DNA of 56,166 nt from an uncultured Candidatus Saccharibacteria bacterium (GCA_964527185.1 CAZGOI010000001.1:300410-356575); one strand, 5' to 3'; numbered from the stretch's first letter, positions 26,327 through 50,454 are shown. The notes: generated by a model not told the origin, from the sequence alone. Numbers and translations are program-made.

Positions 26327-27331
26327 ATGTCACAGCTATATAGCAATTCAATTTTTTGGGTTGATGCAGACAAGATCAAGCCCAACCCATTTCAGCCACG
26401 TCGAGAATTTGACGAAGAGAGATTAAAAGATCTGGCCGATTCGATTCGCCAGTATGGCATGCTCCAGCCGCTGACCGTTTCGCGCACCGAAGTTTTGAAA
26501 GAAGACGGCGGTATCGGGGTTGAATATGAACTGATCGCCGGCGAGCGTCGTCTTCGGGCTTCAAAAATTGCCGGCCTTGATCAAGTACCGGTCATCATTC
26601 GTGTGGGTGATGACAACATGGCCAAACTCGAGCTTGCTATCATAGAGAATCTGCAGCGCGAAGACTTAAATCCTGTCGAGCGGGCAAGGGCCTTCATGCG
26701 ATTGGTTGAGGAATTTGATTTTACCCACGCTCAAATTGGTGGCAAGGTTGGCAAAAGCCGGGAACACGTTTCAAATACTCTGCGCTTGCTTGCCCTGCCA
26801 CAAGAGATGCTCGATGCACTATCTCAAGGCAAAATTACCGAAGGTCACACTCGGCCGATACTCATGCTCTCTAACAGACCCGAAGAACAAACAGTACTCT
26901 TTAAAGAAATAATGTTCAAAAAAATGACCGTCCGCGATGCCGAGCGAGTAGCCCGCAAGATAGCCTATGATCGTGTACGTAAAAAGGAATACATGCCAGA
27001 CCCAGAGCTCGCAGAACTTGAAAATAAATTGCAAGAAACGCTCGGTACCAGGGTGCACATCGATCGCAGAGACAACGGCGGGCAGATCATGATAGACTTT
27101 TTTTCAAACGACGACCTGCGGATGATTCTTGACCTGATGAAATCAAATGAAATGAAAAATCCAAACTCGATGCTCGAGAATTTTATATCAGGCCAAAATA
27201 TCGATATGAGTATGGCAGAGAATACAACGCCGATTGAAGATATCGAACGACTTGACGATAGAGACAAAGCAGAAATCAAAGAAGACGAAGGCGATATAGA
27301 CCTCTATAATATTAAAAATTTTTCAATCTAG
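26327..27331 (+). CDS. parB: ParB/Spo0J family partition protein
   Basis: IKPNPFQPRREF, ELIAGERRLRA, IENLQREDLNPVE, HTH. Confidence 0.95.
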   Translation: MSQLYSNSIFWVDADKIKPNPFQPRREFDEERLKDLADSIRQYGMLQPLTVSRTEVLKEDGGIGVEYELIAGERRLRASKIAGLDQVPVIIRVGDDNMAKLELAIIENLQREDLNPVERARAFMRLVEEFDFTHAQIGGKVGKSREHVSNTLRLLALPQEMLDALSQGKITEGHTRPILMLSNRPEEQTVLFKEIMFKKMTVRDAERVARKIAYDRVRKKEYMPDPELAELENKLQETLGTRVHIDRRDNGGQIMIDFFSNDDLRMILDLMKSNEMKNPNSMLENFISGQNIDMSMAENTTPIEDIERLDDRDKAEIKEDEGDIDLYNIKNFSI

Positions 27332-28809
27332 TTTTTTCCAAACGATAAGAATCTCGACAGCAGGCTGTGCGATTTTAGATATGTATTTATATGCTTGCGG
27401 GCCAGCCCAGTCTTTGCGTGGTCGAGCCATTTTGATGACGGATTTGTATTTTTGTTTACATGGATTTCAACAATGTCATTTGTTTTAAGTTTGCTGTGGA
27501 GCGCCGCATTTTTACCATTTATTTTTGCGGCCTGGGCGTGGTTGCCGATGTCGGTGTGGATAGCGTAAGCAAAATCGATAGCCGTTGCGTCTTCCGGCAA
27601 GTCTATGATGTCGCCTTTTGGAGTGAAAACAAAAACCCTATCTTTAAAAAAGTCCATCTTGATACTTTTTAAATAAGCTTCCGGTTTTTCTGTTTCTTTT
27701 TCAAGCACACTACTTAGGTGGCGAAGCTTGTTGACCCATTCAATTTGATCAAGGTCAATATTGCTCGCTCTTGTTTCTCTTTTCTCTTTATAAGCAAAGT
27801 GGGCAGCCAGACCGTATTCGGCCTGATAGTGCATTTCATATGTTCTGATCTGGATCTCGACAATTCCACCGGTGCCAGTGAATATTGTCGTGTGCAGACT
27901 TCGGTAACCATTTATTTTCGGTGTGGCTATATAGTCTTTGAATCTATTTGGCAAAGGAGTCCAAGTGCCGTGGATGAGCCCAAGTATGTGATAACAGTCA
28001 GCGACCGTGTCAACCATGACTCGCAAAGCCAATATGTCATAGACTTTACCAATGTCCATCTCATGTTTTTTTAATTTTCGCCAGAGCGAGTATAGATGCT
28101 TTTGCCTGAAATCTACATGATAATTTTTTATACCGTCCTTTTTTAACTTCTTCAAGAGTTCTTCTTTGACTTCTTGTAAATACTTTTCCTCGGTATCCTT
28201 CCGGGCTATTAAAAGTTTTTTAACATTTTCATACTCTTCTGGATAGGCAAATTTGAATGCTGCGTCTTCGAGTCGGCCGCGCAGACGACCCATCGACAGC
28301 CGGTGGGCAAGCGGGGCATAGACTTCGAGCGTCTCGAGGGCAATGCGCTTTTGCTTGTCGGGTCGGACGTATTCGAGTGTTTCAATATTGTGTAGTCTAT
28401 CGGCGAGTTTTATAACCAGCACGCGAATATCTTCGGTCATCGAAACAAAAAATCGACGCAAGTTTTCAACATTGCGCTCGACACCTTTGTATCTGACCGT
28501 ACCAAGTTTTGTTACGCCCTTGACGAGCGAAACAATCTCTTTATTGAATTCTTTTGTCAGCTCTGTTTCGGTGGTTTTTGTATCTTCGAGAACGTCGTGC
28601 AGAAAACCAGCAGTAATGACCGTCGGTCCCATGCCGAGGTCGGCGAGGTTTTTGGCAGTTTTAAAAACGTGCAAAAAATATGGTTCGCCACTTTTTCGCA
28701 ATTGGCCTTCGTGGGCGTGCTTGGCAAAGTCATAAGCCTTCTCGACAAGCATTTTCCCTTTGAGGCTGATGTTTGGAATCAGGTCAAATATTTCTTTTAA
28801 ATCGGGCAT
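27328..28809 (-). CDS. rel: RelA/SpoT family (p)ppGpp synthetase/hydrolase (HD, synthetase and TGS domains)
   Basis: RKSGEPY, HDVLEDT, KLADRLHN, NGYRSLHT, EIQIRT, VFTPKG. Confidence 0.95.
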   Translation of the reverse strand: MPDLKEIFDLIPNISLKGKMLVEKAYDFAKHAHEGQLRKSGEPYFLHVFKTAKNLADLGMGPTVITAGFLHDVLEDTKTTETELTKEFNKEIVSLVKGVTKLGTVRYKGVERNVENLRRFFVSMTEDIRVLVIKLADRLHNIETLEYVRPDKQKRIALETLEVYAPLAHRLSMGRLRGRLEDAAFKFAYPEEYENVKKLLIARKDTEEKYLQEVKEELLKKLKKDGIKNYHVDFRQKHLYSLWRKLKKHEMDIGKVYDILALRVMVDTVADCYHILGLIHGTWTPLPNRFKDYIATPKINGYRSLHTTIFTGTGGIVEIQIRTYEMHYQAEYGLAAHFAYKEKRETRASNIDLDQIEWVNKLRHLSSVLEKETEKPEAYLKSIKMDFFKDRVFVFTPKGDIIDLPEDATAIDFAYAIHTDIGNHAQAAKINGKNAALHSKLKTNDIVEIHVNKNTNPSSKWLDHAKTGLARKHINTYLKSHSLLSRFLSFGKN

Positions 28810-31135: not shown

Positions 31136-31999
31136 CTAAATTTTTCTTATTTCACCAAACTCTTCTTTGATTAATTCTTTTATCTCCATGATCGATAAAA
31201 TGGCATTTGCTTTACCAATATCGATATGTGATAGGCGAATAAGTTCATCGCGTTCTATCGGTTCGGATAGCAATTCGATTATCCTTAGTTCTTCTTTAGA
31301 ACAATCAGCATATTTTTCCTTTTCTGTTTTTTCATTCACTTCGACTTCAAACCCAAGCGTTTCGAGCAACTCTTGGCTCGTCGTTATCGGTACGGCCCCT
31401 GATCTTATGAGCTTATTTGTTCCCGTTGATGTATTTGAAAATATTGAACCTGGTACTGCCAAAACATCGCGATTGTAATCTAACGCTAATCTAGCGGTGA
31501 TGAGCGTCCCAGATTTGTCAGCGGCCTCGACGATGAGTGTTGCTTTTGAAATCCCAGCCATCAATCTATTCCTCTGGGGAAATGTATAAAGCTCGGCCTT
31601 CATTTCTGGTGGAAATTCAGAAAGTATGCAACCATTGTTCCTGACTATGTCACTAGCCAAATTGGCATTGCTTCTGGGGTAGAGGGCTTTGCTGCTTATC
31701 CCAGATCCTGGCATCGCTAAAGTTAAAAGCCCTGCAGACAGCGCAGCTCGGTGGGCGATAGAATCTATACCAAGGGCCAAGCCCGAAACGATGACGATAG
31801 GGTAACCCTTCAAACCCCTTATTAATTTTTCACAGGCATCTTTCCCGTAAGAAGTATTTTTCCGCGAGCCGACGACTGCCAGATATATATAGTCACTCGG
31901 TGGTAAGACCCCTCGGACATAGAGTTCTTTGGGTGGTTGCGGTATTTCGAGTAATGGTTTTGGAAATTCTTCAAGCTTCAATTTTCTGATTTCGTCCAT
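31136..31999 (-). CDS. dprA: DNA processing protein DprA
   Basis: AVVGSRK, VSGLALGIDSIAH, FPQRNRLMAG, SGTLITA. Confidence 0.96.
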   Translation of the reverse strand: MDEIRKLKLEEFPKPLLEIPQPPKELYVRGVLPPSDYIYLAVVGSRKNTSYGKDACEKLIRGLKGYPIVIVSGLALGIDSIAHRAALSAGLLTLAMPGSGISSKALYPRSNANLASDIVRNNGCILSEFPPEMKAELYTFPQRNRLMAGISKATLIVEAADKSGTLITARLALDYNRDVLAVPGSIFSNTSTGTNKLIRSGAVPITTSQELLETLGFEVEVNEKTEKEKYADCSKEELRIIELLSEPIERDELIRLSHIDIGKANAILSIMEIKELIKEEFGEIRKI

Positions 32000-38309: not shown

Positions 38310-39335
38310 CTATAATACTGGTTCCCGTCTATTTTTTTTGTAGAGATGGTGAAAGACGGTAAATTCGTCATAGCCGTGCAAAAACAAAACTATATTTGTA
38401 CCTAAAAGCACGATATGCGGCCAGACAACCTCGCCGAAAAAACACAAAGACAGGGTTAGAAATGCAAGAAATACGAAAGATATGAAACGAATCTCAAACC
38501 CAAGCAATATGAAAAGCCCGATAGAAAACTCTATCAAAAATGCTCCGAGGACTATAAACGCTGGAGAAAAATGAAAATAATTTGTCAGGTGATAGGTGTT
38601 CACAGTATCAAAAGCAAGCGAGCCGTGCAAAAGTTTTGCATAGATTGCAGCATAGAGTATCGAAACACTGAAGCATGCCCTGACAATGAAAAATTTTCTC
38701 CTATCTAAATATTTTTTTATTTTGTTGTTTAAAAACTCAAATTTATTTTTTACCAGAGAATATCCACCGCCAAATAAAAATATGACAAACGCTTCGCCAA
38801 GATAAACCAGATAGCTGGCCAAATACCCGCCGACCGATGATAGGGCAGATAGATATATGATTATGGCGAGCAATCCGCCCAACCTCTCGTATACACCAAA
38901 GAGTATAGAAAAACTGGCTACATAAAGTAAAAAAGTAACAACAAAGGTCGAAGCGCCAAAAACATTTGCAAAAGGTAGCTCGGTTCCAAACAGCGCGCCA
39001 TAGTAGGCCGAGGCAAGGAGCGCCAGGCCGAGCGTCACTTGGGCGACGTGACCGGCGTATGGTTTTATTTTAAATAAAAATGGGTCGATCTTTTTTTCGA
39101 CTTTTCTTGAGATCGATATTCCAAGCACCAAAAATATTATTAGAGCGCCGATGATAGACCAGAGGATGAACTGCCCGCCACTTTCTTCGGCGATTTGGAA
39201 CAAGTTCACAGCCGGTTGGGCAAGGTCGTGCACTATCTGGTCGTGGCCGAGCACATAAACTTCGTGGGCAAAAGTTCTAGCCGGCAAGAGTGCCACAAAG
39301 ACCAAAACTACGACCAAATATTTTTTAAATTTCAT
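38310..39335 (-). CDS. DoxX-like multi-pass membrane protein
   Basis: Signal peptide with AHEVYV; C-terminal IEFSIGLFILLGFEIR (DoxX-like). Confidence 0.65.
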   Translation of the reverse strand: MKFKKYLVVVLVFVALLPARTFAHEVYVLGHDQIVHDLAQPAVNLFQIAEESGGQFILWSIIGALIIFLVLGISISRKVEKKIDPFLFKIKPYAGHVAQVTLGLALLASAYYGALFGTELPFANVFGASTFVVTFLLYVASFSILFGVYERLGGLLAIIIYLSALSSVGGYLASYLVYLGEAFVIFLFGGGYSLVKNKFEFLNNKIKKYLDRRKFFIVRACFSVSILYAAIYAKLLHGSLAFDTVNTYHLTNYFHFSPAFIVLGAFLIEFSIGLFILLGFEIRFISFVFLAFLTLSLCFFGEVVWPHIVLLGTNIVLFLHGYDEFTVFHHLYKKNRREPVL

Positions 39336-42155: not shown

Positions 42156-42404
42156 CTATATCAAACCACTAATCAATCCTAACTTCTTTTCTCTTCTCCA
42201 TCCCTTGATCTCGCTTTCTCGATGTCTAGCTTCTTTTAATGTCGAAAAACTCTCGGAATATTTTAAAATTACAGGTCTACGAGTTTTAGTATAGTGGGCT
42301 CCCCATTTTGAATTATTGTGTTGTTTTAATCTACGTTCTAGATCATTTGTACAACCCACATAAAAAGATTTATCGGCGCATTCGAGGATATAAACAAAAT
42401 GCAT
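42156..42404 (-). CDS. Small GIY-YIG nuclease (YhbQ/UPF0213-like)
   Basis: FVYIL...FYVG.T.DLERRLKQHN...EARHRE. Confidence 0.92.
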   Translation of the reverse strand: MHFVYILECADKSFYVGCTNDLERRLKQHNNSKWGAHYTKTRRPVILKYSESFSTLKEARHRESEIKGWRREKKLGLISGLI

Positions 42405-42512
42405 AAATTAATTCTACCTCGTCGTCCTTACTTTGTCAGGACTCGCTTGGTATCTTCGTCGCAAATAAAAACAATATGGGCCGAAGGCTCTGAGGAGCAG
42501 AGCGACGAAGAG

Positions 42513-42583
42513 CTGGGGGATAGGGACTCGAACCCCAATTTACGGGACCAAAACCCGGCGTCCTACCATTAGACGATCCCCCA
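42513..42583 (-). tRNA. tRNA-Gln(TTG)
   Basis: TGGGGGA/TCCCCCA acceptor stem, CGGG-TT-TTG-GT-CCCG, GGTTCGAGTCC. Confidence 0.95.
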
Positions 42584-42592
42584 AAATGTTTT

Positions 42593-42835
42593 TTAATTAT
42601 TGAATATTGTTTTCAAAAACTTTCTACCTGATCCTGATTTTAAGTACTTTTCTCTTTTTCTGGCTTCTTCCCTAGTTCCATACATCTCTTTATGGATAAT
42701 TTCCCAAGGAAAGTAGTTTTTTGTAAAAAAAGATTTACCTGAATTATGTTCTCTTAAACGACGTTCAATGTTATCTGTCATACCTACATAGGATTTCTTG
42801 GCGACTTTGCTTTTCAGTATGTATACAAAATACAT
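42593..42835 (-). CDS. Small GIY-YIG nuclease
   Basis: FVYIL...SYVGMTDNIERRLREHN...EARKREKYLKSGSGR. Confidence 0.92.
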   Translation of the reverse strand: MYFVYILKSKVAKKSYVGMTDNIERRLREHNSGKSFFTKNYFPWEIIHKEMYGTREEARKREKYLKSGSGRKFLKTIFNN

Positions 42836-42971: not shown

Positions 42972-43241
42972 ATGAAGCAAATCTGGTTCATAAAAAAACG
43001 ATATGGCTGGGGGTGGATGCCGGTCACTTGGCAGGGATGGGTCATCATGTTTGTCTATCTCATTCTCATGGTTAGCACGTTCATCCGCGTAGACAATCAT
43101 TCGCACTCGGTTTCAGACACGCTCATCGCGTTTGCTCTGCCTTTTATTTTTTTCACTTCGATTCTCATCGTCATCTGCTATAAAAAAGGCGAAAAGCCAA
43201 AATGGCAGTGGGGGAGGCCAAGAGTTGACAAAACTAAATAA
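42972..43241 (+). CDS. Small two-TM membrane protein
   Basis: WFIKKRYGWGWMPVTWQGW, two TM helices, GEKPKWQWG. Confidence 0.75.
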   Translation: MKQIWFIKKRYGWGWMPVTWQGWVIMFVYLILMVSTFIRVDNHSHSVSDTLIAFALPFIFFTSILIVICYKKGEKPKWQWGRPRVDKTK

Positions 43242-43259
43242 AAATTATATAATGCCCGC

Positions 43260-43697
43260 ATGAAAAAAACTTTTGCAATATTTACATTATTTATAGTTTT
43301 CCTTGGAGTTGGTTTTGCTATGGCCCCTGCCAAATCTGAAGCTGGCTTTGGTCTGTCTATTAGTTTTGGCCTCGGTAACAATTATGGCTATGGAAATGGC
43401 TATAGTAACTACGGCTATGGCTACCCATATTCTGGTTACGGCTACAATAATTATGGTGGCTATAACAATAATTATTATTCAAACTATAGCGGCTACAATA
43501 ACAATTACTACAACAATGGCTATTCTAACTATGGTTACAACAATTACTATAATCCAGGCTATAGCTACTACACTGGTGGCGATATATCTCCAACAGGTGG
43601 TTACTACAATACTGGCTACACATACTATCCGTCATATTCTGGTTATCAGTACGGTTATGGATACGAATATGTAAACTGCTGGACAAATGCTTGCTAA
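43260..43697 (+). CDS. Secreted Tyr/Asn/Gly-rich low-complexity protein
   Basis: Signal peptide ending AKSEA; TTGACA-17-TATAAT promoter; own terminator. Confidence 0.75.
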   Translation: MKKTFAIFTLFIVFLGVGFAMAPAKSEAGFGLSISFGLGNNYGYGNGYSNYGYGYPYSGYGYNNYGGYNNNYYSNYSGYNNNYYNNGYSNYGYNNYYNPGYSYYTGGDISPTGGYYNTGYTYYPSYSGYQYGYGYEYVNCWTNAC

Positions 43698-43759: not shown

Positions 43760-43788
43760 TTGACTTCTACTTTTTTTTGTGATATAAG
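43760..43788 (+). promoter_or_regulatory. Sigma70-type promoter for the 449-aa gene
   Basis: TTGACT-N17-TATAAG with a TG extension. Confidence 0.65.
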
Positions 43789-43810
43789 ATAGCAAAATGT
43801 CAGGATTATA

Positions 43811-43860
43811 ATTATTGTTTGCCTCCAGAATCTTATTGGGTTTTGAAGGCAAACAATAAT
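43811..43860 (+). promoter_or_regulatory. ~22-bp 5'UTR hairpin
   Basis: ATTATTGTTTGCCT/AGGCAAACAATAAT (14 bp perfect), one C-A mismatch, then CAGAATC/GGTTTTG with G-U pairs. Confidence 0.75.
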
Positions 43861-43882
43861 ACTTAAATTTAAATCCTTTAAA

Positions 43883-45232
43883 ATGCAAGCAAATACCACA
43901 ACAACCAAAAGAACTCCTAGTATTCAGGAGTACAACGAAATTGCTGAAAATCTAATACATGAATTAAAAGATTTTTGGCATCTGGAAACCGGAATAAAAA
44001 ATGTCATCGTTAAGTCGATGAACAAACAAGAACTTCTTGTGCCAATGGTAGATTTTCACCATCGGAACAATACGGATAAATTTATTAAAAGGCTATCCGA
44101 GTTCGGTTTTCCAGCCCCAAGTATTTCAGAAGTCAATGCAGCATTCCTCGATGTAGTAAAATCTCGTCGCATAACACTGCAAAAAGACCACCAGGGTAAA
44201 CTACTCGACAACCTCGGTAGTCTGTCCGAGGTGTATGACGCCCTTAAATATCATTTTAACGAAAAGGGTATCAAGAACCTGGTTCGCTTAGGGCATGGAT
44301 TTGTCCGTGTCCAAAACAAACAGATGGCAAGAAGGGCAACAAACTTTTTAAAAGTAAAATACCCCTGCTATAAATTTATCTGTAGTGGTGAAGATATTCT
44401 TATCTACACTAAGCAAGCAACGCCCGGTATTACACCCGCCTCATATGCCGACTATCTTCGGGCAATAATTGTGACCATTTTTAAAATCGAAATCTTTGAT
44501 AACCCTTCCATCTCAGAAAATGGAATAATCGTAGGTTTTGATTCTGAGACTGTTACGCGTGATGCCCAACTGTATTGTGAATATTTTGGGATATCGTCAT
44601 CCGCAAGAGGTACGACATTGGTTTTCCCTATAGAAAAACCTCATTTCAGTATTGAACATATTAAAAATGAGTTCAGTAAAAACATCTCCGAAATCAGAGA
44701 AACAACCACTACTGAAATCATCAAAGAAACAATATCTATATCGGCCAGTGGAAAAATGAGCAATGAAGATTTTAAACGTTCTGTATGTCGTTATGTAAAG
44801 GAAAAGGGTTATAAAAAAATCAACAATTCATCTCAAAGAGAAATAAGAGCCTACACCTACAGTATGGGGCTCAAGGGAGATTTAAACCAAATAGTAGATC
44901 AGGCTAAAATAGATCACCCCGAATGGATTGTTGTAATCAAAAAATCTGGTAAATATATTGATTTCACCCTAAATCAGGAATACTCCCAGAAAACCAGCAA
45001 CTCACCTTTGCAATCACATCAAGCAAGTACGGATGTTAAATTCGAAGAATCGAAAAGATCAAGCGGCGATCCAATGATCGATGTAGAGATTTCAATCCCG
45101 CTTTCATCTATCGAAAAGAAAGTACTGAAAGATGTATCAGATGAATCCCTGATAAAAGAAATGAAAAGAAGAGGACCGGATTTTGCCAAGAAAGTATTTA
45201 CTAGGATACTTTCTGTGTGGCAGAAATCATGA
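43883..45232 (+). CDS. Hypothetical 449-aa protein
   Basis: Long AT-rich ORF with promoter and terminator. No family recognised. Confidence 0.8.
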   Translation: MQANTTTTKRTPSIQEYNEIAENLIHELKDFWHLETGIKNVIVKSMNKQELLVPMVDFHHRNNTDKFIKRLSEFGFPAPSISEVNAAFLDVVKSRRITLQKDHQGKLLDNLGSLSEVYDALKYHFNEKGIKNLVRLGHGFVRVQNKQMARRATNFLKVKYPCYKFICSGEDILIYTKQATPGITPASYADYLRAIIVTIFKIEIFDNPSISENGIIVGFDSETVTRDAQLYCEYFGISSSARGTTLVFPIEKPHFSIEHIKNEFSKNISEIRETTTTEIIKETISISASGKMSNEDFKRSVCRYVKEKGYKKINNSSQREIRAYTYSMGLKGDLNQIVDQAKIDHPEWIVVIKKSGKYIDFTLNQEYSQKTSNSPLQSHQASTDVKFEESKRSSGDPMIDVEISIPLSSIEKKVLKDVSDESLIKEMKRRGPDFAKKVFTRILSVWQKS

Positions 45233-45258
45233 TTGGTAGGTATTGCATCAAAATCAAG

Positions 45259-45284
45259 AAACCCCCTATATATACAGGGGGTTT
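45259..45284. terminator. Shared bidirectional terminator
   Basis: AAACCCCCT-atatatac-AGGGGGTTT between the convergent island genes. Confidence 0.75.
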
Positions 45285-45305
45285 ATAATTTCCATGACAA
45301 CATCA

Positions 45306-48300
45306 TCAATTTATAGCCTGTCCACCGACATGCTGAGATAATTCTTCATACGCCAAACCAGCTGCCCTTTGAATCGCATGCTCAGGTGTAATACCCAAAG
45401 CACTTGTTTCCCAGCCAAGGACTTTAATCCGTCCCTTGTAAAGTACATTGTTTTTGTGTTTTACTTCAGTAGTAGATTTTTTTATCTCCCCAAATCTGGC
45501 TTTTTCACACAAATTCTCAAGCATAGCCATCGGCTTTTTGCTGACATTAGTGTCCGCGCACCGAGAGAAGCTCGGCAAAGAATATGTCAGCTGTAGGGCA
45601 AGTGTTACTCGGGCAAATTTTTTAGCTTCATCAACATTCTGGTGGAATGCTGGCTTACCAGAAAATTTTATTCCCTTGAATTTCTCGACATAAGCCACTA
45701 CGACCGAAAGGTTATTTCTCTCTGTTATTGTGTATATTACTTCCTGATACTGGTTTTCATATACCATCAATTCCAGAGCCTTCAGTAAGTTATTGAAGCG
45801 TTTGCTCCCAACATAGACAGTAATCTCCCCGCTAACCATTTTAGCATCAATAATTTTCTGAAATTCCACGGCTGCAGCTTTTTCTGCTACTTCTTTACTT
45901 ACACTTGAAACTATAGGGCTTGAATACTTTAAACCCTCAGGTAATTCAAGGTGAGCTTGAGCAATGTACTTTGGTTCCTGTTTGTACAGGTCCCTTGGGT
46001 GCGACGTTATGTCTGGCTCAACACCGAAAAATTTCCGGCATGTAAAGTTGAGTGTTTCAATGGGGAATTCGTTTCCAACCAAACCTATGCCTGTCTTTTT
46101 TTCTATAACACCGAAACCAATCTTCTTTTTAGACGGAATAACTTTATTCTCAATCCTCTTCTTTGGCTGATTGAAACCACTTTGTGTAGATGCGTATTTA
46201 TTCACACGAGGGTCATGGAAAGATCTTCTCTCTTGCAAACCGGCTCTCCTCATTAATTCTATAAAGGAAGTCATGTTTGAAGAAGTAAGGGAAGTTTTGT
46301 TTTCATTGAGGTTTAGATTAACCATGATTAAACCGTTCCTAAATTTATCAAACCTCCTTTTAGCAAATGAGTGCAACGAACTCTGCCTCACACTCATCAA
46401 TGCGTCGATCGAGTCAAAACCTTCTTTTATAAGAATTTCCGAGGTGTATTTAAGCATCTCCTCTTTGTTACCCAAAGATAATGCTAAACGCAACTCTTCT
46501 TGTTCTATAAAATTGATTTCGCCAAGTCGAAACATATTTGATGTGATAACATTCACATTGTCCTCAGACTGAGGGCCGGTTAGTGAACGAGTTTGTTCTT
46601 CATACATCTTTTGTTCGATGAAAGGGAAGGCTCGTCTCTCCTCGGTATTGAGCAGGTTCCAAATTTCAGTCCAGCTCTTTCCTTTACGAAGAAGTTCAAA
46701 AACTTTCTTTTCAATTTCGTACGCAGTTCCCCAACCGGCAATAAGGCCGCCTGAGATAATTGTACTTCTGCCAAATATACCAAGGACACTTGCAAGCAGA
46801 TGTTTGTCTGAGACAAACACTAGGTCAAGAATAACCAGGTCATCCAAGGGGCTATCTTTATCAATTCTTATACCACGACCTAGATTCTGAACTAGTTTCC
46901 ATTGTGATCCAAGTCCGAGTGGTCGTAGTAGAATTATCATGTTCACAAAGGGCAGGTCAATACCTTCGCCAACTTTTTCAGCCGAGAAGATTAGTGTGAT
47001 CTCACCTTTGCGAAATTTTTCAATAACTACGTTATACTCACCCTCGCTCATTCGGCCATCAACATACGCTGCACGAAAATGCACATCCTTGCCGTATTTT
47101 TCTTTTATTTTTTCGGCTAGAATTTTATTACATTCTTCTGCACAAAGCTTAGCTGTATTTATCCGATCAACAAAAACAATACCCCGCCTTTGATAAATGG
47201 GTTTTGAATCCGCAAGTCTTAAACCGGGATGATCTCCAATGTAGGCTTCGGCCACGACTTCGGCTGCAATGGTAGGGTTCTTTGAAAGAATCCTTGCTAC
47301 AGAGTCGTCGTTTAGGACATCATATGTGCCATGTCCACTTTTTGTTTTAGCCTCTGAAATATCTATTTTAACACCATTGATTTTTATCAACCTAACTTGT
47401 TTCAGTTCTTGGTAAAGAATCATTTCACTGATGCTTTTGTGATAATTCAGGAATCCCACATAGTCATTCTTTTGTTTAGCTTCAGAAAGTTCAGGGCGGT
47501 AAATTTTTTCAAAGAAAAAAAATGGGTCGCGATCCGGTCCAATAACCGTAGCGCTTAACCCAAAAACTAATGTTTTCATTTCCTCAAGTAAAACCGCTAT
47601 TCGCTCTGTTACGCGGTGGCTTTCATCACATATCGTCATGAAAACCGGCTTTCTGAACTGGTCAGTAATCCTTTGAGCACGAAGCCCTTGATATGTACTG
47701 ATTGTTAATATGGAATCCTTGGCCAACTCTTTTTTCTGGCCACTTTGATTACCAGCCAGAACACGAATTTTATCATCACTAATGTCTGGTATCCATATTC
47801 TTACATCACCCTTCCTGCCTATTTCGAGCGGGATATCTTCTGCTTCTTCTTTTGGTAACTCTTCCTCAATCAACTGACCTGCAATAGCAACTCGGGATGT
47901 TAGAATATGAATTTCATAATCTAAACCAAGCTCCCGCATTGTATCAATTGCAGCCCTGACTAGTGCACCAATATGCATAGATTTTCCGCTACCCGTTGGT
48001 ACTTCAGATAGTGGTCTGACATAACCCCGCGAAAGTGTTTGTAATGTTGCAAGCAAGAGTTCTTTTTGAGTCACTCTCCAATTGCGGCTTATACCGAAAT
48101 GAAGTGGGACTAAGGTTTTCTCGAGATGCTTAATAAAGACATCTACCACGTTTTTATGTTTGAGCAAGGCATTATTCAGTGATTTATGCAGAAAAGAATT
48201 TCCCATGATCACATCTTTTGCCACTTCTCTTATTACATGACTCCTCTCCAAAGAGAAGCCATACTTTTCAATTACATGGATTAAATTACACCCATGAGTA

Positions 48301-48365
48301 ATGTGATCTTCCAACCCTTGTTGGTCAAACACAGAGGTTTTCTTTTGGAAAGTTGTTGTTGTCAT
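45306..48365 (-). CDS. SF2 DExH helicase (ResIII/Irc3-like core) with three C-terminal dsRBD-like domains
   Basis: WRVTQ, PTGSGKS, DESH, LSAT, EGIDLP, QNLGRGIR. C-terminal repeats end in SKEVAEKAAA, EAKKFAR and HAIQRAAGLA. Confidence 0.8.
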   Translation of the reverse strand: MTTTTFQKKTSVFDQQGLEDHITHGCNLIHVIEKYGFSLERSHVIREVAKDVIMGNSFLHKSLNNALLKHKNVVDVFIKHLEKTLVPLHFGISRNWRVTQKELLLATLQTLSRGYVRPLSEVPTGSGKSMHIGALVRAAIDTMRELGLDYEIHILTSRVAIAGQLIEEELPKEEAEDIPLEIGRKGDVRIWIPDISDDKIRVLAGNQSGQKKELAKDSILTISTYQGLRAQRITDQFRKPVFMTICDESHRVTERIAVLLEEMKTLVFGLSATVIGPDRDPFFFFEKIYRPELSEAKQKNDYVGFLNYHKSISEMILYQELKQVRLIKINGVKIDISEAKTKSGHGTYDVLNDDSVARILSKNPTIAAEVVAEAYIGDHPGLRLADSKPIYQRRGIVFVDRINTAKLCAEECNKILAEKIKEKYGKDVHFRAAYVDGRMSEGEYNVVIEKFRKGEITLIFSAEKVGEGIDLPFVNMIILLRPLGLGSQWKLVQNLGRGIRIDKDSPLDDLVILDLVFVSDKHLLASVLGIFGRSTIISGGLIAGWGTAYEIEKKVFELLRKGKSWTEIWNLLNTEERRAFPFIEQKMYEEQTRSLTGPQSEDNVNVITSNMFRLGEINFIEQEELRLALSLGNKEEMLKYTSEILIKEGFDSIDALMSVRQSSLHSFAKRRFDKFRNGLIMVNLNLNENKTSLTSSNMTSFIELMRRAGLQERRSFHDPRVNKYASTQSGFNQPKKRIENKVIPSKKKIGFGVIEKKTGIGLVGNEFPIETLNFTCRKFFGVEPDITSHPRDLYKQEPKYIAQAHLELPEGLKYSSPIVSSVSKEVAEKAAAVEFQKIIDAKMVSGEITVYVGSKRFNNLLKALELMVYENQYQEVIYTITERNNLSVVVAYVEKFKGIKFSGKPAFHQNVDEAKKFARVTLALQLTYSLPSFSRCADTNVSKKPMAMLENLCEKARFGEIKKSTTEVKHKNNVLYKGRIKVLGWETSALGITPEHAIQRAAGLAYEELSQHVGGQAIN

Positions 48366-48390
48366 ATTAAAGGTTTTTTGTTATTAAAAA

Positions 48391-48439
48391 TTTGTTAGGT
48401 TATTTTAAGGCTCACCGAGCTCTAAAATAACCCAACAAA
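48391..48439 (-). promoter_or_regulatory. ~23-bp 5'UTR hairpin
   Basis: On the minus (mRNA) strand the stem has 20 Watson-Crick pairs, 2 G-U pairs, 1 mismatch and a 3-nt loop. Confidence 0.75.
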
Positions 48440-48480
48440 ATAAAAACAAAACCTTCTTTTTAAGGTTCATATTCACGCAC

Positions 48481-48509
48481 ATAATACTATTAAAATTAAA
48501 TTATGTCAA
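48481..48509 (-). promoter_or_regulatory. Sigma70-type promoter for the helicase
   Basis: TTGACA-N17-TATTAT on the minus strand. Confidence 0.65.
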
Positions 48510-50099: not shown

Positions 50100-50175
50100 A
50101 TAGGATGAGTTTTTGTTGACTTTTTAATAATTTACCGTTATAATGCATCATTATAATTAAAAAGTCAAGTAAAAT

Positions 50176-50406
50176 ATGGATGAAGGATATAAACCAAAAA
50201 TAACAGATAAAGTAGAGCGTGAACTATATGAAAAGTGTCATGCTAAAAATAATTTGATAACCGAAAAAGATTGGATGGAGTTACGCAGAATTGCACTTTC
50301 TGCACACACTCCTGGTGTTAAAAAATTCTTTGAGGTTGCAGGTGTTGTTATGGAAAATAAACCTGATACCGATACTATTAACCAACTGAAAGATAAAGTT
50401 GTCTAA
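50176..50406 (+). CDS. Hypothetical small protein
   Basis: 76-aa ORF behind TTGACT-17-TATAAT and followed by a long inverted repeat. Confidence 0.6.
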   Translation: MDEGYKPKITDKVERELYEKCHAKNNLITEKDWMELRRIALSAHTPGVKKFFEVAGVVMENKPDTDTINQLKDKVV

Positions 50407-50454
50407 ACTATAAAAAGAAAAACACATTAAACTGTGTTTTTCTTTTTATAGTTT
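50405..50454. terminator. Perfect 22-bp inverted repeat between convergent genes
   Basis: AAACTATAAAAAGAAAAACACA-ttaaac-TGTGTTTTTCTTTTTATAGTTT. Confidence 0.75.

Follow-up and report, generated by a model that had tools for sequence, protein, structure and literature searches.

Drosha/DGCR8 cuts hairpins within the 5' UTR of the DGCR8 mRNA, and Suv3-Dss1, the yeast mitochondrial degradosome, joins a helicase to an RNase II/R-type exoribonuclease. RNase III, PNPase, and the helicase DeaD exert feedback on their own leaders (PMC5371410, PMC7430678), and DHX9/Maleless is a DExH helicase with two dsRBDs that bind roX2 stem-loops (PMC6486548). The locus described here lies in a 56,166-nt stretch of DNA from an uncultured Candidatus Saccharibacteria bacterium (hereafter the window) and is a rare two-gene module of the CPR/Patescibacteria, consisting of an SF2 DExH-type helicase and a family-specific partner protein (Table 1). 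The rnc, pnp, and DeaD/CsdA leaders offer a likeness in which an RNA enzyme has a long structured leader that mimics its substrate and provides feedback (PMC5371410, PMC7430678), an arrangement that we propose here, and the hairpins of the module match RNase III-type operators in their stem of about two helical turns. Unlike in those leaders, two separately transcribed genes bear homologous copies of the putative operator, a helicase with three predicted dsRBD folds takes the place of RNase III as the candidate reader, and a conserved G·U step marks the element, which belongs to no Rfam family. DHX9/MLE is likewise an SF2 DExH helicase fused to tandem dsRBDs, and MLE is among our Foldseek matches (5ztm, E 7e-6), but its two dsRBDs are N-terminal whereas the three predicted here are C-terminal, and the core in our module is of the ResIII type and the organism bacterial (CPR).

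Table 1. Features of the two-gene module, with positions counted from the first nucleotide of the window.
Feature	Position	Strand	Evidence or remarks
Partner promoter, TTGACT-17-TATAAG	43760..43788	+	10/12 match
Partner 5' leader, inferred, ~88 nt	43795..43882	+	TSS inferred from -10 position
Partner outer stem, AGGAUU/AAUCCU	43802-43807 / 43872-43877	+	MFE structure; closes hairpin domain 5 nt from AUG
Partner leader hairpin, 22 pairs	43811..43860	+	Fold, inverted-repeat scan, CM R1
Partner gene, 449 aa	43883..45232	+	Family alignment
Bidirectional terminator, G+C-rich palindrome between the convergent genes	45259..45284	.	11 pairs, 5 G-C
Helicase gene, 1019 aa	45306..48365	-	SF2 core, helical middle region, three C-terminal dsRBD folds (predicted)
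dsRBD-fold module 3, ~aa 944-1014	45324..45536	-	AlphaFold2 model, Foldseek, sequence profile
dsRBD-fold module 2, ~aa 855-929	45579..45803	-	AlphaFold2 model, Foldseek
dsRBD-fold module 1, ~aa 768-844	45834..46064	-	AlphaFold2 model, Foldseek
Helicase core, ~aa 96-520 (ResIII N-lobe + Helicase_C)	46806..48080	-	PF04851 E 2.4e-8; PF00271 E 1.7e-11
Helicase 5' leader, inferred, ~109 nt	48366..48474	-	TSS inferred
Helicase leader hairpin, 22 pairs	48391..48439	-	Fold, inverted-repeat scan, CM R1
Helicase promoter, TTGACA-17-TATTAT	48481..48509	-	11/12 match

The expectation that the two genes would occur together was borne out, with helicase and partner adjacent in 9/9 lineages whose contigs permit a check (genomic context, tblastn). 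The sites occupied by the module differ among lineages, and some lie in the interior of the S10 ribosomal-protein operon, an unusual place for an insertion. No transposase or recombinase was found beside the pair in any locus carrying both genes, nor was a defence-island context found for the module, and in PADLOC-DB 2.0 the partner had 0 matches and the helicase matched over short stretches of its core alone, at E 1e-8 or weaker. A scan of GTDB genomes returned only two MAGs, both already found, and scans of metagenome and viral collections gave zero matches. The island had been described as AT-rich, but its AT excess is slight (GC 0.37-0.40) and the flanks are similar.

The partner, called an orphan in the earlier note, has homologues at 24-34% identity, recovered via genomic context, tblastn, and an exhaustive HMMER search that found 13 representatives of the family in 1.84 billion proteins; in word-indexed searches, the single sequence returned only itself and a 7-sequence profile only P0012. 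Members of the family have in common an N-terminal region of ~370 aa, made up of repeating helix/beta-hairpin units, and a C-terminal helix motif, SDExL..E.KRRGpdF. Among the conserved residues of the partner are R142, Q144, E170, and D171. The partner matched nothing in Pfam, NCBIfam, PADLOC, or the PDB, and these comparisons revealed no nuclease motif. A structural model built from two sequences was poor (pLDDT 49.6), and its Foldseek matches, ArgR (best E 0.02) and LAGLIDADG (probability <0.2), were not significant, so we assign it no fold. A 90-aa protein of lineage L005 was rejected as a homologue of a partner domain (hhalign probability 0.3%).

For the helicase, the SF2 motifs PTGSGKS, CDESHR, SATV, and QNLGRGIRI are conserved in 10/10 members, and ResIII and Helicase_C both score above the Pfam cut-offs in the window protein; besides these and DEAD, no Pfam family was found in any member at E ≤0.001. 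Searches of PDB, NCBIfam, and PADLOC with the helicase returned generic SF2-core matches alone, and by sequence the core lies no nearer to DEAH/RHA than to RadD, Hef, or eIF4A. A DEAH/RHA assignment finds no HA2/OB-fold matches in Pfam and has the dsRBD folds at the C-terminus, and for a Dicer/RIG-I-like assignment the RNase III, PAZ, and CARD/CTD domains were undetected in the helicase with Pfam and NCBIfam.

The earlier note had named this protein a dsRBD helicase, a description that predicted structure upholds and Pfam does not. The AlphaFold2 model of aa 540-1019 is made up of helices and dsRBD folds and nothing else, with three alpha1-beta1-beta2-beta3-alpha2 modules at pLDDT ~90 (module 1, also at pLDDT ~90, comprises H229-241, E246-252, E260-268, E274-276, and H285-305 in model numbering). 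In a Foldseek search of the PDB, each of the top 29 matches was either a dsRBD protein or a complex bearing a dsRBD (best E 2e-11), and the matches included TARBP2 (2e-11), Loqs-PB (7e-10), R2D2, NF90, DRB4, MLE, DGCR8, ADAR2, and RNase III. The Pfam domain dsrm (PF00035), by comparison, was found neither in the window helicase (E up to 10) nor in any of 10 family members (E up to 1). Compared with the PDB, the module 3 profile gave 11 weak matches (E 0.1-7), 11/11 of them to dsRBD proteins. Module 3 retains P...L.E..C.K in helix 1 and G.GI(S/T)..HA..(K/R)AA at helix 2; on inspection of the family alignment, its KKxAK lysines are replaced by PEHA(R/I) (KK by PE), and GPxH is absent. At module 1, S.SKEVAEKAAA is found in the window and an acidic stretch in relatives. 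Most of the canonical KKxAK lysines are thus exchanged, and dsRNA binding may be absent from some or all of the modules, or these may serve in protein interaction, as dsRBD3 of TRBP does. The Thr-rich N-termini remarked on for both proteins are not conserved in either family.

The best structural matches have three tandem dsRBDs (7zpk_C 2e-11, 8dfv_K 7e-10, 7v6c_B), as in TRBP/Loquacious/R2D2, and the likeness extends to the RNA: the leader hairpins have dimensions similar to those of pre-miRNAs, and the hairpins in the 5' UTR of the DGCR8 mRNA, the basis of Microprocessor feedback, are comparable to the leaders of our module. In Rfam 15 no family reached its gathering threshold at either leader, and in E-value mode the only matches, all to pre-miRNA models, were far sub-threshold. 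The module differs, however, in having no RNase III, PAZ, or Argonaute partner, and the sequence identity is 12-17%; we regard the TRBP/Microprocessor likeness as an analogy in a possible mode of action and not as family membership. Among bacterial proteins, to our knowledge, hardly any but RNase III are known to have dsRBDs. With its three predicted tandem dsRBD folds closest to those of TRBP/Loquacious, the helicase would broaden the bacterial dsRNA toolkit and would be relevant to questions about the origin of eukaryotic dsRNA pathways.

As had been noted from the window itself, each gene has its own promoter, a strong one of the sigma-70 kind and close to consensus, and the positions of these promoters predict leaders of ~110 nt (helicase) and ~88 nt (partner), in line with the ~90-110 nt given before. 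The TG-extended -10 context of the partner promoter, TGTGATATAAG, is similar to TGTTATATAA in relatives, and a TTGACT-16/17-TATAA(T/G/A) promoter also lies 5' of the partner gene in L003, L005, L008, and L011, and by eye in L001. The inferred partner leader has the 5' segment UGUCAGGAUU and the 3' segment AAUCCUUUAAA, the latter immediately 5' of the AUG, while the helicase leader runs from a conserved 5' box, GAACCUUAAAAAG, through an outer imperfect stem and the long hairpin to an A-rich spacer. The module leaders measure 90-120 nt, whereas many neighbouring genes are leaderless. In at least 13/52 genes of the window, a -10 hexamer ends 6-7 nt upstream of the ATG, which agrees with the remark that many are leaderless, and many of the genes without a leader also have no Shine-Dalgarno sequence. 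The terminator said to serve both genes was found between them, with a T-run on the - strand and TTTATAATTT following on the + strand. A conserved uORF in the helicase leader (48470-48405, 21 codons) was considered and discarded, the relatives having none or 3-6 codons.

Strong predicted promoters lie upstream of every hairpin, and the hairpins are therefore transcribed. Between promoter and hairpin lie 39-44 nt in the 6 helicase leaders whose promoter was measured, and 17-24 nt in 5/6 partner leaders; hairpin-to-ATG distances range over 21-34 nt across lineages and are 22-25 nt in the window.

The 22-23-bp hairpins previously pointed out in both leaders are present, and those of partner and helicase rank 3rd and 7th among the longest close inverted repeats in the window, where terminators and palindromic promoter regions make up the rest of the top repeats. 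As sense RNA, the partner leader has a folding energy of -31.0 kcal/mol (z -5.3) and the helicase leader one of -33.8 kcal/mol (z -4.4), and 0/200 shuffles fold as well in either case. Both hairpins have a lower stem and an apical stem. Between the two stems lie a C-G/A-U/G·U step and a C·A mismatch in the partner hairpin, which is capped by a 4-nt loop, and an A-U/G·U step and an A·C mismatch in the helicase hairpin, whose loop measures 3 nt. The imperfections of the hairpins are 2 G·U pairs and a 1x1 A·C mismatch in one and 3 G·U pairs and a 1x1 C·A mismatch in the other, so the claim that most imperfect positions read as G-U holds. The short outer stems also reported (AGGATT/AATCCT for the partner; AAGGTT.../...AACCTT for the helicase) both appear in the MFE structures, and the partner-type stem is kept in 4/6 partner leaders, among them L008 (GGGUU/AACCC), L001 (GGUU/AACC), and L005 (GGA(C)UU/AAUCC). 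The lower stem of the helicase hairpin, UUGGGUUAU/AUAACC(U)AA, is conserved in sequence between lineages. With the CM R1, the partner hairpin scores 50.5 bits in sense and 33.4 in antisense, and the helicase hairpin 52.3 and 40.7. As intrinsic terminators or attenuators the hairpins fit poorly, with A/U-rich stems (GC 0.24-0.42) absent from the terminator scan and no U-run 3' of the partner hairpin. The lower-stem motif TTGGGTTAT was also considered as a copy of another site and rejected, with 22 window matches (≤1 mismatch) against 14.5 +/- 3.7 expected and no copies in the rRNA leader.

Comparison across lineages revealed the hairpin in 7/8 helicase leaders and 7/8 partner leaders. The common form (22-25 bp) has a ~17-bp lower stem, a near-invariant A-U/G·U step, a mismatch, and a short apical stem, and the helicase and partner classes fit one model, a shared design that implies one reader. 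In a set of 14-15 hairpins from ~8 lineages, which is below R-scape-grade size, RNAalifold found compensatory double changes at 13/22 and 14/20 pairs. The G·U and A·C counts given below for sense rows were made on a CM-fitted alignment, since MAFFT sets some of the 3' arms one column off. In the both-strand alignment A9, with its antisense rows added, pairing holds in 89.5% of the cells against 69.4% when shuffled, a type of test that kinship among the sequences inflates, and ≤49% when the partner arm is slid. A model made from 13 hairpins recognised an unseen partner leader in L017 (46 bits, E 4e-10). In 146 kb, CM R1 had one match outside the known hairpins, and this was a third leader, in L005.

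The same data bear on whether the palindromes act as DNA, that is, as operators of dimeric repressors, as cruciforms, or as ends or recombination sites of a mobile cassette. The convergent pair does have a palindrome close to each of its outer ends, and the pair is found at different sites, including inside the S10 operon. In sense rows, however, G·U outnumbers A·C by 33 to 7, a ratio mirrored in antisense rows (6 vs 28), the sense fold is the more stable in 11/13 hairpins, and sense scores exceed antisense by 10-20 bits. One G·U position is near-invariant (13/14 hairpins, both genes), which is a conserved asymmetry in a palindrome, and both sides vary at 20/22 pairs of A9 while the sequence is only partly conserved, a poor fit to protein-DNA recognition. 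With the hairpins downstream of the predicted promoters and transposases and recombinases absent beside every locus with both genes, a DNA-level role is extremely improbable. The pairing is thus retained across lineages with many compensatory changes and an RNA-type strand bias, as the earlier idea of pairing at the RNA level had supposed. The element is a probable cis-regulatory RNA new to Rfam with unusually clean covariation; no family in Rfam, Pfam, or PADLOC covers the leader RNA or the partner.

One exception is informative. In L006 both genes and the dsRBD region are kept, both hairpins are missing, and the leaders are short and plain, so the hairpins are dispensable for the core function of the module. 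L006 also bears on the possibility that the hairpins have no specific reader and are 5' stabilisers against decay, or spacers or enhancers aiding leadered mRNAs among leaderless ones. It is well established that 5' stem-loops stabilise bacterial mRNAs, and such a role would suit a window in which many genes are leaderless and lack Shine-Dalgarno sequences, as well as the open AUG region. But the short plain leaders of L006 occur on both genes, the hairpins start ~15-40 nt into the predicted transcript and not at its 5' end, and a passive stabiliser needs no near-invariant G·U, conserved lower stem, or fixed distance to the AUG; on balance we find a readerless hairpin quite unlikely. The AUG region of the leaders is mostly unpaired, and the hairpin therefore looks like a platform and not a simple occluder.

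Co-occurrence, conserved pairing, position relative to the promoters, and predicted dsRBD folds all agree, and based on these data we concluded that co-regulation of the gene pair through a dsRNA element is well supported. Our reading of how this works, to which we would give about an even chance, is that the hairpins serve as cis-regulatory RNA and that the dsRBD helicase encoded in the module is their reader, a feedback on both genes through mimicry of the substrate. The leader hairpins would be RNA operators that mimic a dsRNA substrate of the helicase, and free helicase, alone or with the partner, would bind them through its dsRBDs and make both mRNAs less well translated and/or less stable. 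Real substrates, by engaging the protein, would release both genes from repression jointly, which would keep helicase and partner in balance. Within this scheme, the helicase as reader, the direction of control, and dsRNA as the substrate of the module are each put forward as presumptive.

Housekeeping RNase III of the host could instead cut the ~22-bp stems and thereby set mRNA stability or activate translation for both genes, much as happens in the rnc and pnp leaders, the module proteins not being readers at all. A stem of ≥22 bp that contains an internal mismatch is a classic substrate of RNase III (PMC5371410), and stem length and mismatch architecture here are compatible with RNase III leaders. 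The evidence for conservation at the RNA level fits this enzyme equally well, and with their degenerate KKxAK motifs the helicase dsRBDs are less convincing as binders. A general enzyme, however, leaves unexplained why the design is restricted to this module in 146 kb, and it accounts neither for the conserved lower stem UUGGGUUAU/AUAACCCAA and fixed G·U nor for a hairpin design that moves with the module across genomic contexts. We consider control by RNase III unlikely, though it deserves serious attention.

The recurrence of the hairpin on separately transcribed genes, two in the module and three in one genome, makes it a small post-transcriptional regulon, which stands out in organisms that otherwise favour leaderless mRNAs. 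Although the CPR hosts are uncultured, every part of the module is open to study in E. coli or in vitro. A bolder extension, which we think improbable, is that the module is a bacterial dsRNA-surveillance device in which helicase and partner patrol, the leader decoys hold the genes off, and foreign dsRNA induces the genes by titrating the protein; if true, it would be a prokaryotic functional counterpart of the RIG-I, Dicer-TRBP, and DHX9 sensors. Conceivable targets of such a device are long dsRNA from phage replication intermediates and convergent or antisense transcripts.

The nearest outgroup of the helicase family, P0011 (35% identity), belongs to a sister branch in which the helicase gene is followed by that of an RNB-domain exoribonuclease with a dsrm domain. 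This pairing resembles Suv3-Dss1, although the neighbour in the module studied here is the partner protein and not an RNB enzyme, and because of it the sister branch points to the degradation of structured RNA as the ancestral business of the helicase family.

Inverted-repeat searching and RNA folding located a long hairpin in the leader of each gene of the convergent pair, encoding a 1019-aa SF2 helicase and its 449-aa partner, where the earlier note had placed them. In the window-wide search the helicase and partner hairpins ranked 3rd and 7th among close inverted repeats, the remaining long ones being terminators or palindromic promoter regions. Folded as sense RNA, the helicase leader reached -33.8 kcal/mol (z-score -4.4) and the partner leader -31.0 kcal/mol (z-score -5.3), and none of 200 dinucleotide shuffles folded as well as either real leader. 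The short outer stems named earlier were present within both minimum-energy structures, and the claimed promoters and bidirectional terminator were also recovered (see table). From the promoter positions we infer leaders of about 110 nt (helicase) and 88 nt (partner). Such lengths are unusual for this genome because many genes in the window look leaderless, as had been remarked: at least 13 of 52 were judged so, having no Shine-Dalgarno sequence but a -10-like hexamer that ends 6-7 nt ahead of the start codon. Leaderless mRNAs appear common in this organism. The helicase leader also holds a 21-codon upstream ORF that begins close to the predicted 5' end and stops within the 3' arm of the hairpin; it is probably non-functional, since in relatives it is missing or has just 3-6 codons. 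Helicase leaders carry a conserved single-stranded box close to their 5' end, and partner leaders have a very similar one (AAUCCUUUAAAA / UAACCAUUAAAA) between hairpin and AUG.

Positions of features in the window and in homologous loci (L numbers)
Feature	Position (strand)	Description
Partner promoter	43760-43788	TTGACT-17-TATAAG, near-consensus, upstream of hairpin
Partner hairpin	43811-43860
Common terminator	45259-45284	G+C-rich, between the convergent genes
Helicase hairpin	48391-48439
Helicase-leader uORF	48405-48470 (-)	21 codons
Helicase-leader box	48455-48467 (-)	(A/U)(A/U)CCUU(U)AAAAA; equivalent site in L001-L011
Helicase promoter	48509-48481	TTGACA-17-TATTAT, near-consensus, upstream of hairpin
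Leaderless-looking starts (examples)	43225-43262, 42972, 42593-42835 (-), 42156-42404 (-), 38310-39335 (-), 32035, 31136-31999 (-), 27328-28809 (-), 21952, 22627
tRNA-Gln	42512-42583 (-)	about 1.3 kb upstream of the pair
Two small ORFs	42156-42404 (-), 42593-42835 (-)	flank tRNA-Gln
145-aa protein gene	43260-43697 (+)	Gly/Tyr/Asn-rich
Divergent promoter region	50110-50174	palindromic
Inverted repeat	50405-50454	perfect, 22 bp
Third hairpin	L005:3711-3765 (+)	28.5 bits with R1
90-aa ORF	L005:3792-4064
RNB-dsrm gene	L009:5863-7632; L010:4495-6177	in the partner's place, P0011-type outgroup loci
Pair with diacylglycerol-kinase gene	L001:2554-7381; L003:6001-10895; L002:6001-9048	inside S10 operon, between rplB (L2) and rpsS (S19)
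Tandem pair	L006 (= L007):4084-9003	partner upstream of helicase; consensus promoters for both genes

RNAfold gave a 19-26-bp hairpin core in all 12 leaders first folded (both genes, six loci), and L002 supplied a seventh helicase hairpin. Covariation of the leaders, which the earlier note had put forward as a check, was evident in MAFFT alignments analysed with RNAalifold, with compensatory double changes at 13 of 22 pairs in helicase leaders and 14 of 20 in partner leaders. The two hairpin classes could be aligned to each other, and a covariance model (R1) trained on 13 hairpins of both genes returned, from 146 kb of sequence in the window and loci, those 13 and only one new match, in L005, with sense-strand scores always 10-20 bits above antisense. 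R1 also found the hairpin of L017, a leader outside the training set, 29 nt before the partner ATG (46.1 bits, E 4e-10). In the model-fitted alignment, which includes matches from both strands, 20 of 22 pairs varied on both sides and 89.5% of cells were paired, compared with 69.4% in column shuffles and at most 49% with a slid partner. Sense rows alone contained 249 Watson-Crick, 33 G·U, 7 A·C and 14 other combinations, and antisense rows were the mirror image (6 G·U, 28 A·C). These pairing and strand results argue against DNA palindromes, and the strand bias contradicts any action of the hairpins at the DNA level, a reading we find barely credible.

The hairpins also share a detailed design. 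Of 14 hairpins, 13 have G·U at one particular stem position, some 17 bp up from the base, and the remaining hairpin has G-C there; an A-U pair precedes it, and a mismatch and short apical stem usually follow. The lower-stem sequence UUGGGUUAU/AUAACCCAA is kept among helicase hairpins, with proteins merely 43-51% identical. Leader geometry is fixed: the -10 box lies 39-44 nt from the hairpin in all but one of seven helicase leaders and 17-24 nt from it in all but one of six partner leaders (for the exception in each class the script selected another promoter, with the equivalent one recognised by eye only), and 21-34 nt separate hairpin and ATG. The AUG region is mostly unpaired in partner leaders and partly closed by variable outer stems in helicase leaders. 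A passive stabiliser or translation aid would leave the invariant G·U and the fixed spacing unexplained, and we consider this role quite unlikely. Together, the results make a strong case for a transcribed RNA element that is strand-specific and has a common reader. The leaders matched no Rfam family, and sub-threshold matches were to pre-miRNA models only, because of hairpin shape alone.

Among 5.8 billion proteins, nine are relatives of the helicase, at 35-51% identity, and the partner appeared as an orphan by word-indexed search. That designation, also made in the earlier note, did not survive inspection of genomic context. In L001, L003/L004, L005, L008 and L011 the gene after the helicase relative is convergent and has no Pfam domain, and these neighbours proved to be partner homologues (27-34% identity; E 5e-42, 3e-52 and 6e-33). 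L006/L007 have the homologue upstream, in the same orientation as the helicase, and in L017 and L018 two further partner genes are followed by convergent helicase fragments. The proposed co-occurrence is thus borne out by adjacency in nine of nine lineages whose contig permits checking; only 13 partner-family members turned up when 1.84 billion representatives were searched exhaustively with HMMER. The pair sits between a small secreted-protein gene and rmuC in the window, between miaA and ychF in L005 and L008, and inside the S10 ribosomal-protein operon in L001, L003/L004 and also L002, whose contig stops after the helicase. This operon is highly conserved, and accessory genes are rare within it. 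The window genome is CPR/Patescibacteria, and the sole relatives in genome databases were MAGs labelled Candidatus Saccharibacteria and Candidatus Paceibacterota; a search of viral contigs found no pair. Both hairpins are missing from L006/L007, which have plain 35-46-nt leaders, and the helicase there keeps its C-terminal dsRBD region despite their absence.

The helicase carries SF2 motifs (PTGSGKS, DESH, SAT, QxxGRGxR) and Pfam ResIII and Helicase_C domains, and searches of PDB sequences, NCBIfam and PADLOC gave generic core matches only (RadD, eIF4A, Mfd, RecG, UvrB, Hef). AlphaFold2 modelling of residues 540-1019 from the family alignment (pLDDT 75 overall, about 90 for the last 250 residues) produced three alpha-beta-beta-beta-alpha modules preceded by a helical region. 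Foldseek against PDB matched this C-terminus to tandem-dsRBD proteins, including TARBP2 in the Dicer complex (E 2e-11), Loquacious-PB (E 7e-10), R2D2, TRBP dsRBD1-2, NF90, DRB4, MLE, DGCR8, ADAR2 and bacterial RNase III, and the module 3 sequence profile gave weak PDB matches, 11 of 11 to dsRBD proteins. Because of the model and these matches, the label "dsRBD helicase" in the earlier note is correct for the predicted fold. Pfam recognised a dsRBD in none of ten family members, and the canonical KKxAK lysines are largely absent, so that RNA binding by these folds is putative. Directly after the nearest outgroup helicase, P0011 (35% identity, extra C-terminal extension), comes a same-strand RNB exoribonuclease with a Pfam dsrm domain, and this adjacency places the family in structured-RNA metabolism. 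The P0011 leader has only an imperfect long hairpin, with no R1 match.

The most economical reading of the module is substrate-mimic feedback, on which we are evenly divided. A single type of operator would be present in both leaders, and in three in L005: a rod some two helical turns long that bears the G·U/mismatch as landmark. Its candidate reader would be the module's own helicase, with three predicted dsRBD folds the only obvious one that the module encodes; we infer this central mechanistic link with no more confidence than doubt. A protein bound 21-34 nt ahead of an otherwise open start could impede 30S loading or change decay, and with the identical operator on each mRNA, helicase and partner levels would stay in step. 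In animals, feedback of this kind is exerted by the Microprocessor on DGCR8 mRNA. For bacterial RNase III, PNPase and DeaD, leader feedback is an established principle (PMC5371410, PMC7430678). Host RNase III as reader of the hairpins would fit the RNA evidence equally well but leave the module-specific, sequence-conserved design unexplained, and we rate it rather unlikely. Foreign dsRNA as an on-switch, suggested in the earlier note, is compatible but unsupported, and seems to us improbable. Autoregulatory leaders of RNA enzymes possibly resemble the module in mode of action, as may MLE/DHX9, dsRBD-helicases that bind roX2 stem-loops (PMC6486548), although the module helicase lacks HA2/OB domains, and triple-dsRBD Dicer partners, although the module lacks RNase III and PAZ domains. 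It falls outside all these families: Pfam gave no dsrm match, and PADLOC no system. The module brings together a new cis-regulatory RNA motif, a helicase domain architecture absent from the libraries searched and an uncharacterised partner family. The predicted triple-dsRBD helicase would be unexpected in a bacterium, the structural evidence is clean and the system is testable in vitro; the family is very rare and its hosts are uncultured.

The third hairpin in L005 has the same design (UUGUUGG lower stem, A-U/G·U step, apical stem) and precedes by 26 nt a 90-aa ORF that has a TTGACT promoter of its own; the distance to the helicase is about 2 kb. That genome therefore has a three-gene hairpin "regulon". 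The 90-aa protein had no Pfam match and was rejected as a partner relative (no detectable kinship; hhalign probability 0.3%). Pfam, NCBIfam, PADLOC and PDB sequences contained no match to the partner itself, and its structure model was poor, with no significant Foldseek matches. In its alignment, about 370 N-terminal aa form a conserved region of repeated helix/beta-hairpin units, an insert of about 100 aa is optional, and the C-terminus carries the motif SDExL..E.KRRGxxF once or twice.

Several other features of the window were observed. The 145-aa protein, without a Pfam match, has a signal-peptide-like N-terminus, extreme Gly/Tyr/Asn-rich repeats, a perfect 12/12 promoter and an apparently leaderless mRNA. 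By eye only, both ORFs flanking tRNA-Gln have GIY-YIG-like N-termini (MxFVYIL...Y(V)G.T.(D/N)(L/I)ERRL..H). The palindromic divergent promoter region has TTGACT boxes in both directions, and the perfect inverted repeat, between convergent genes, is likely a bidirectional terminator.
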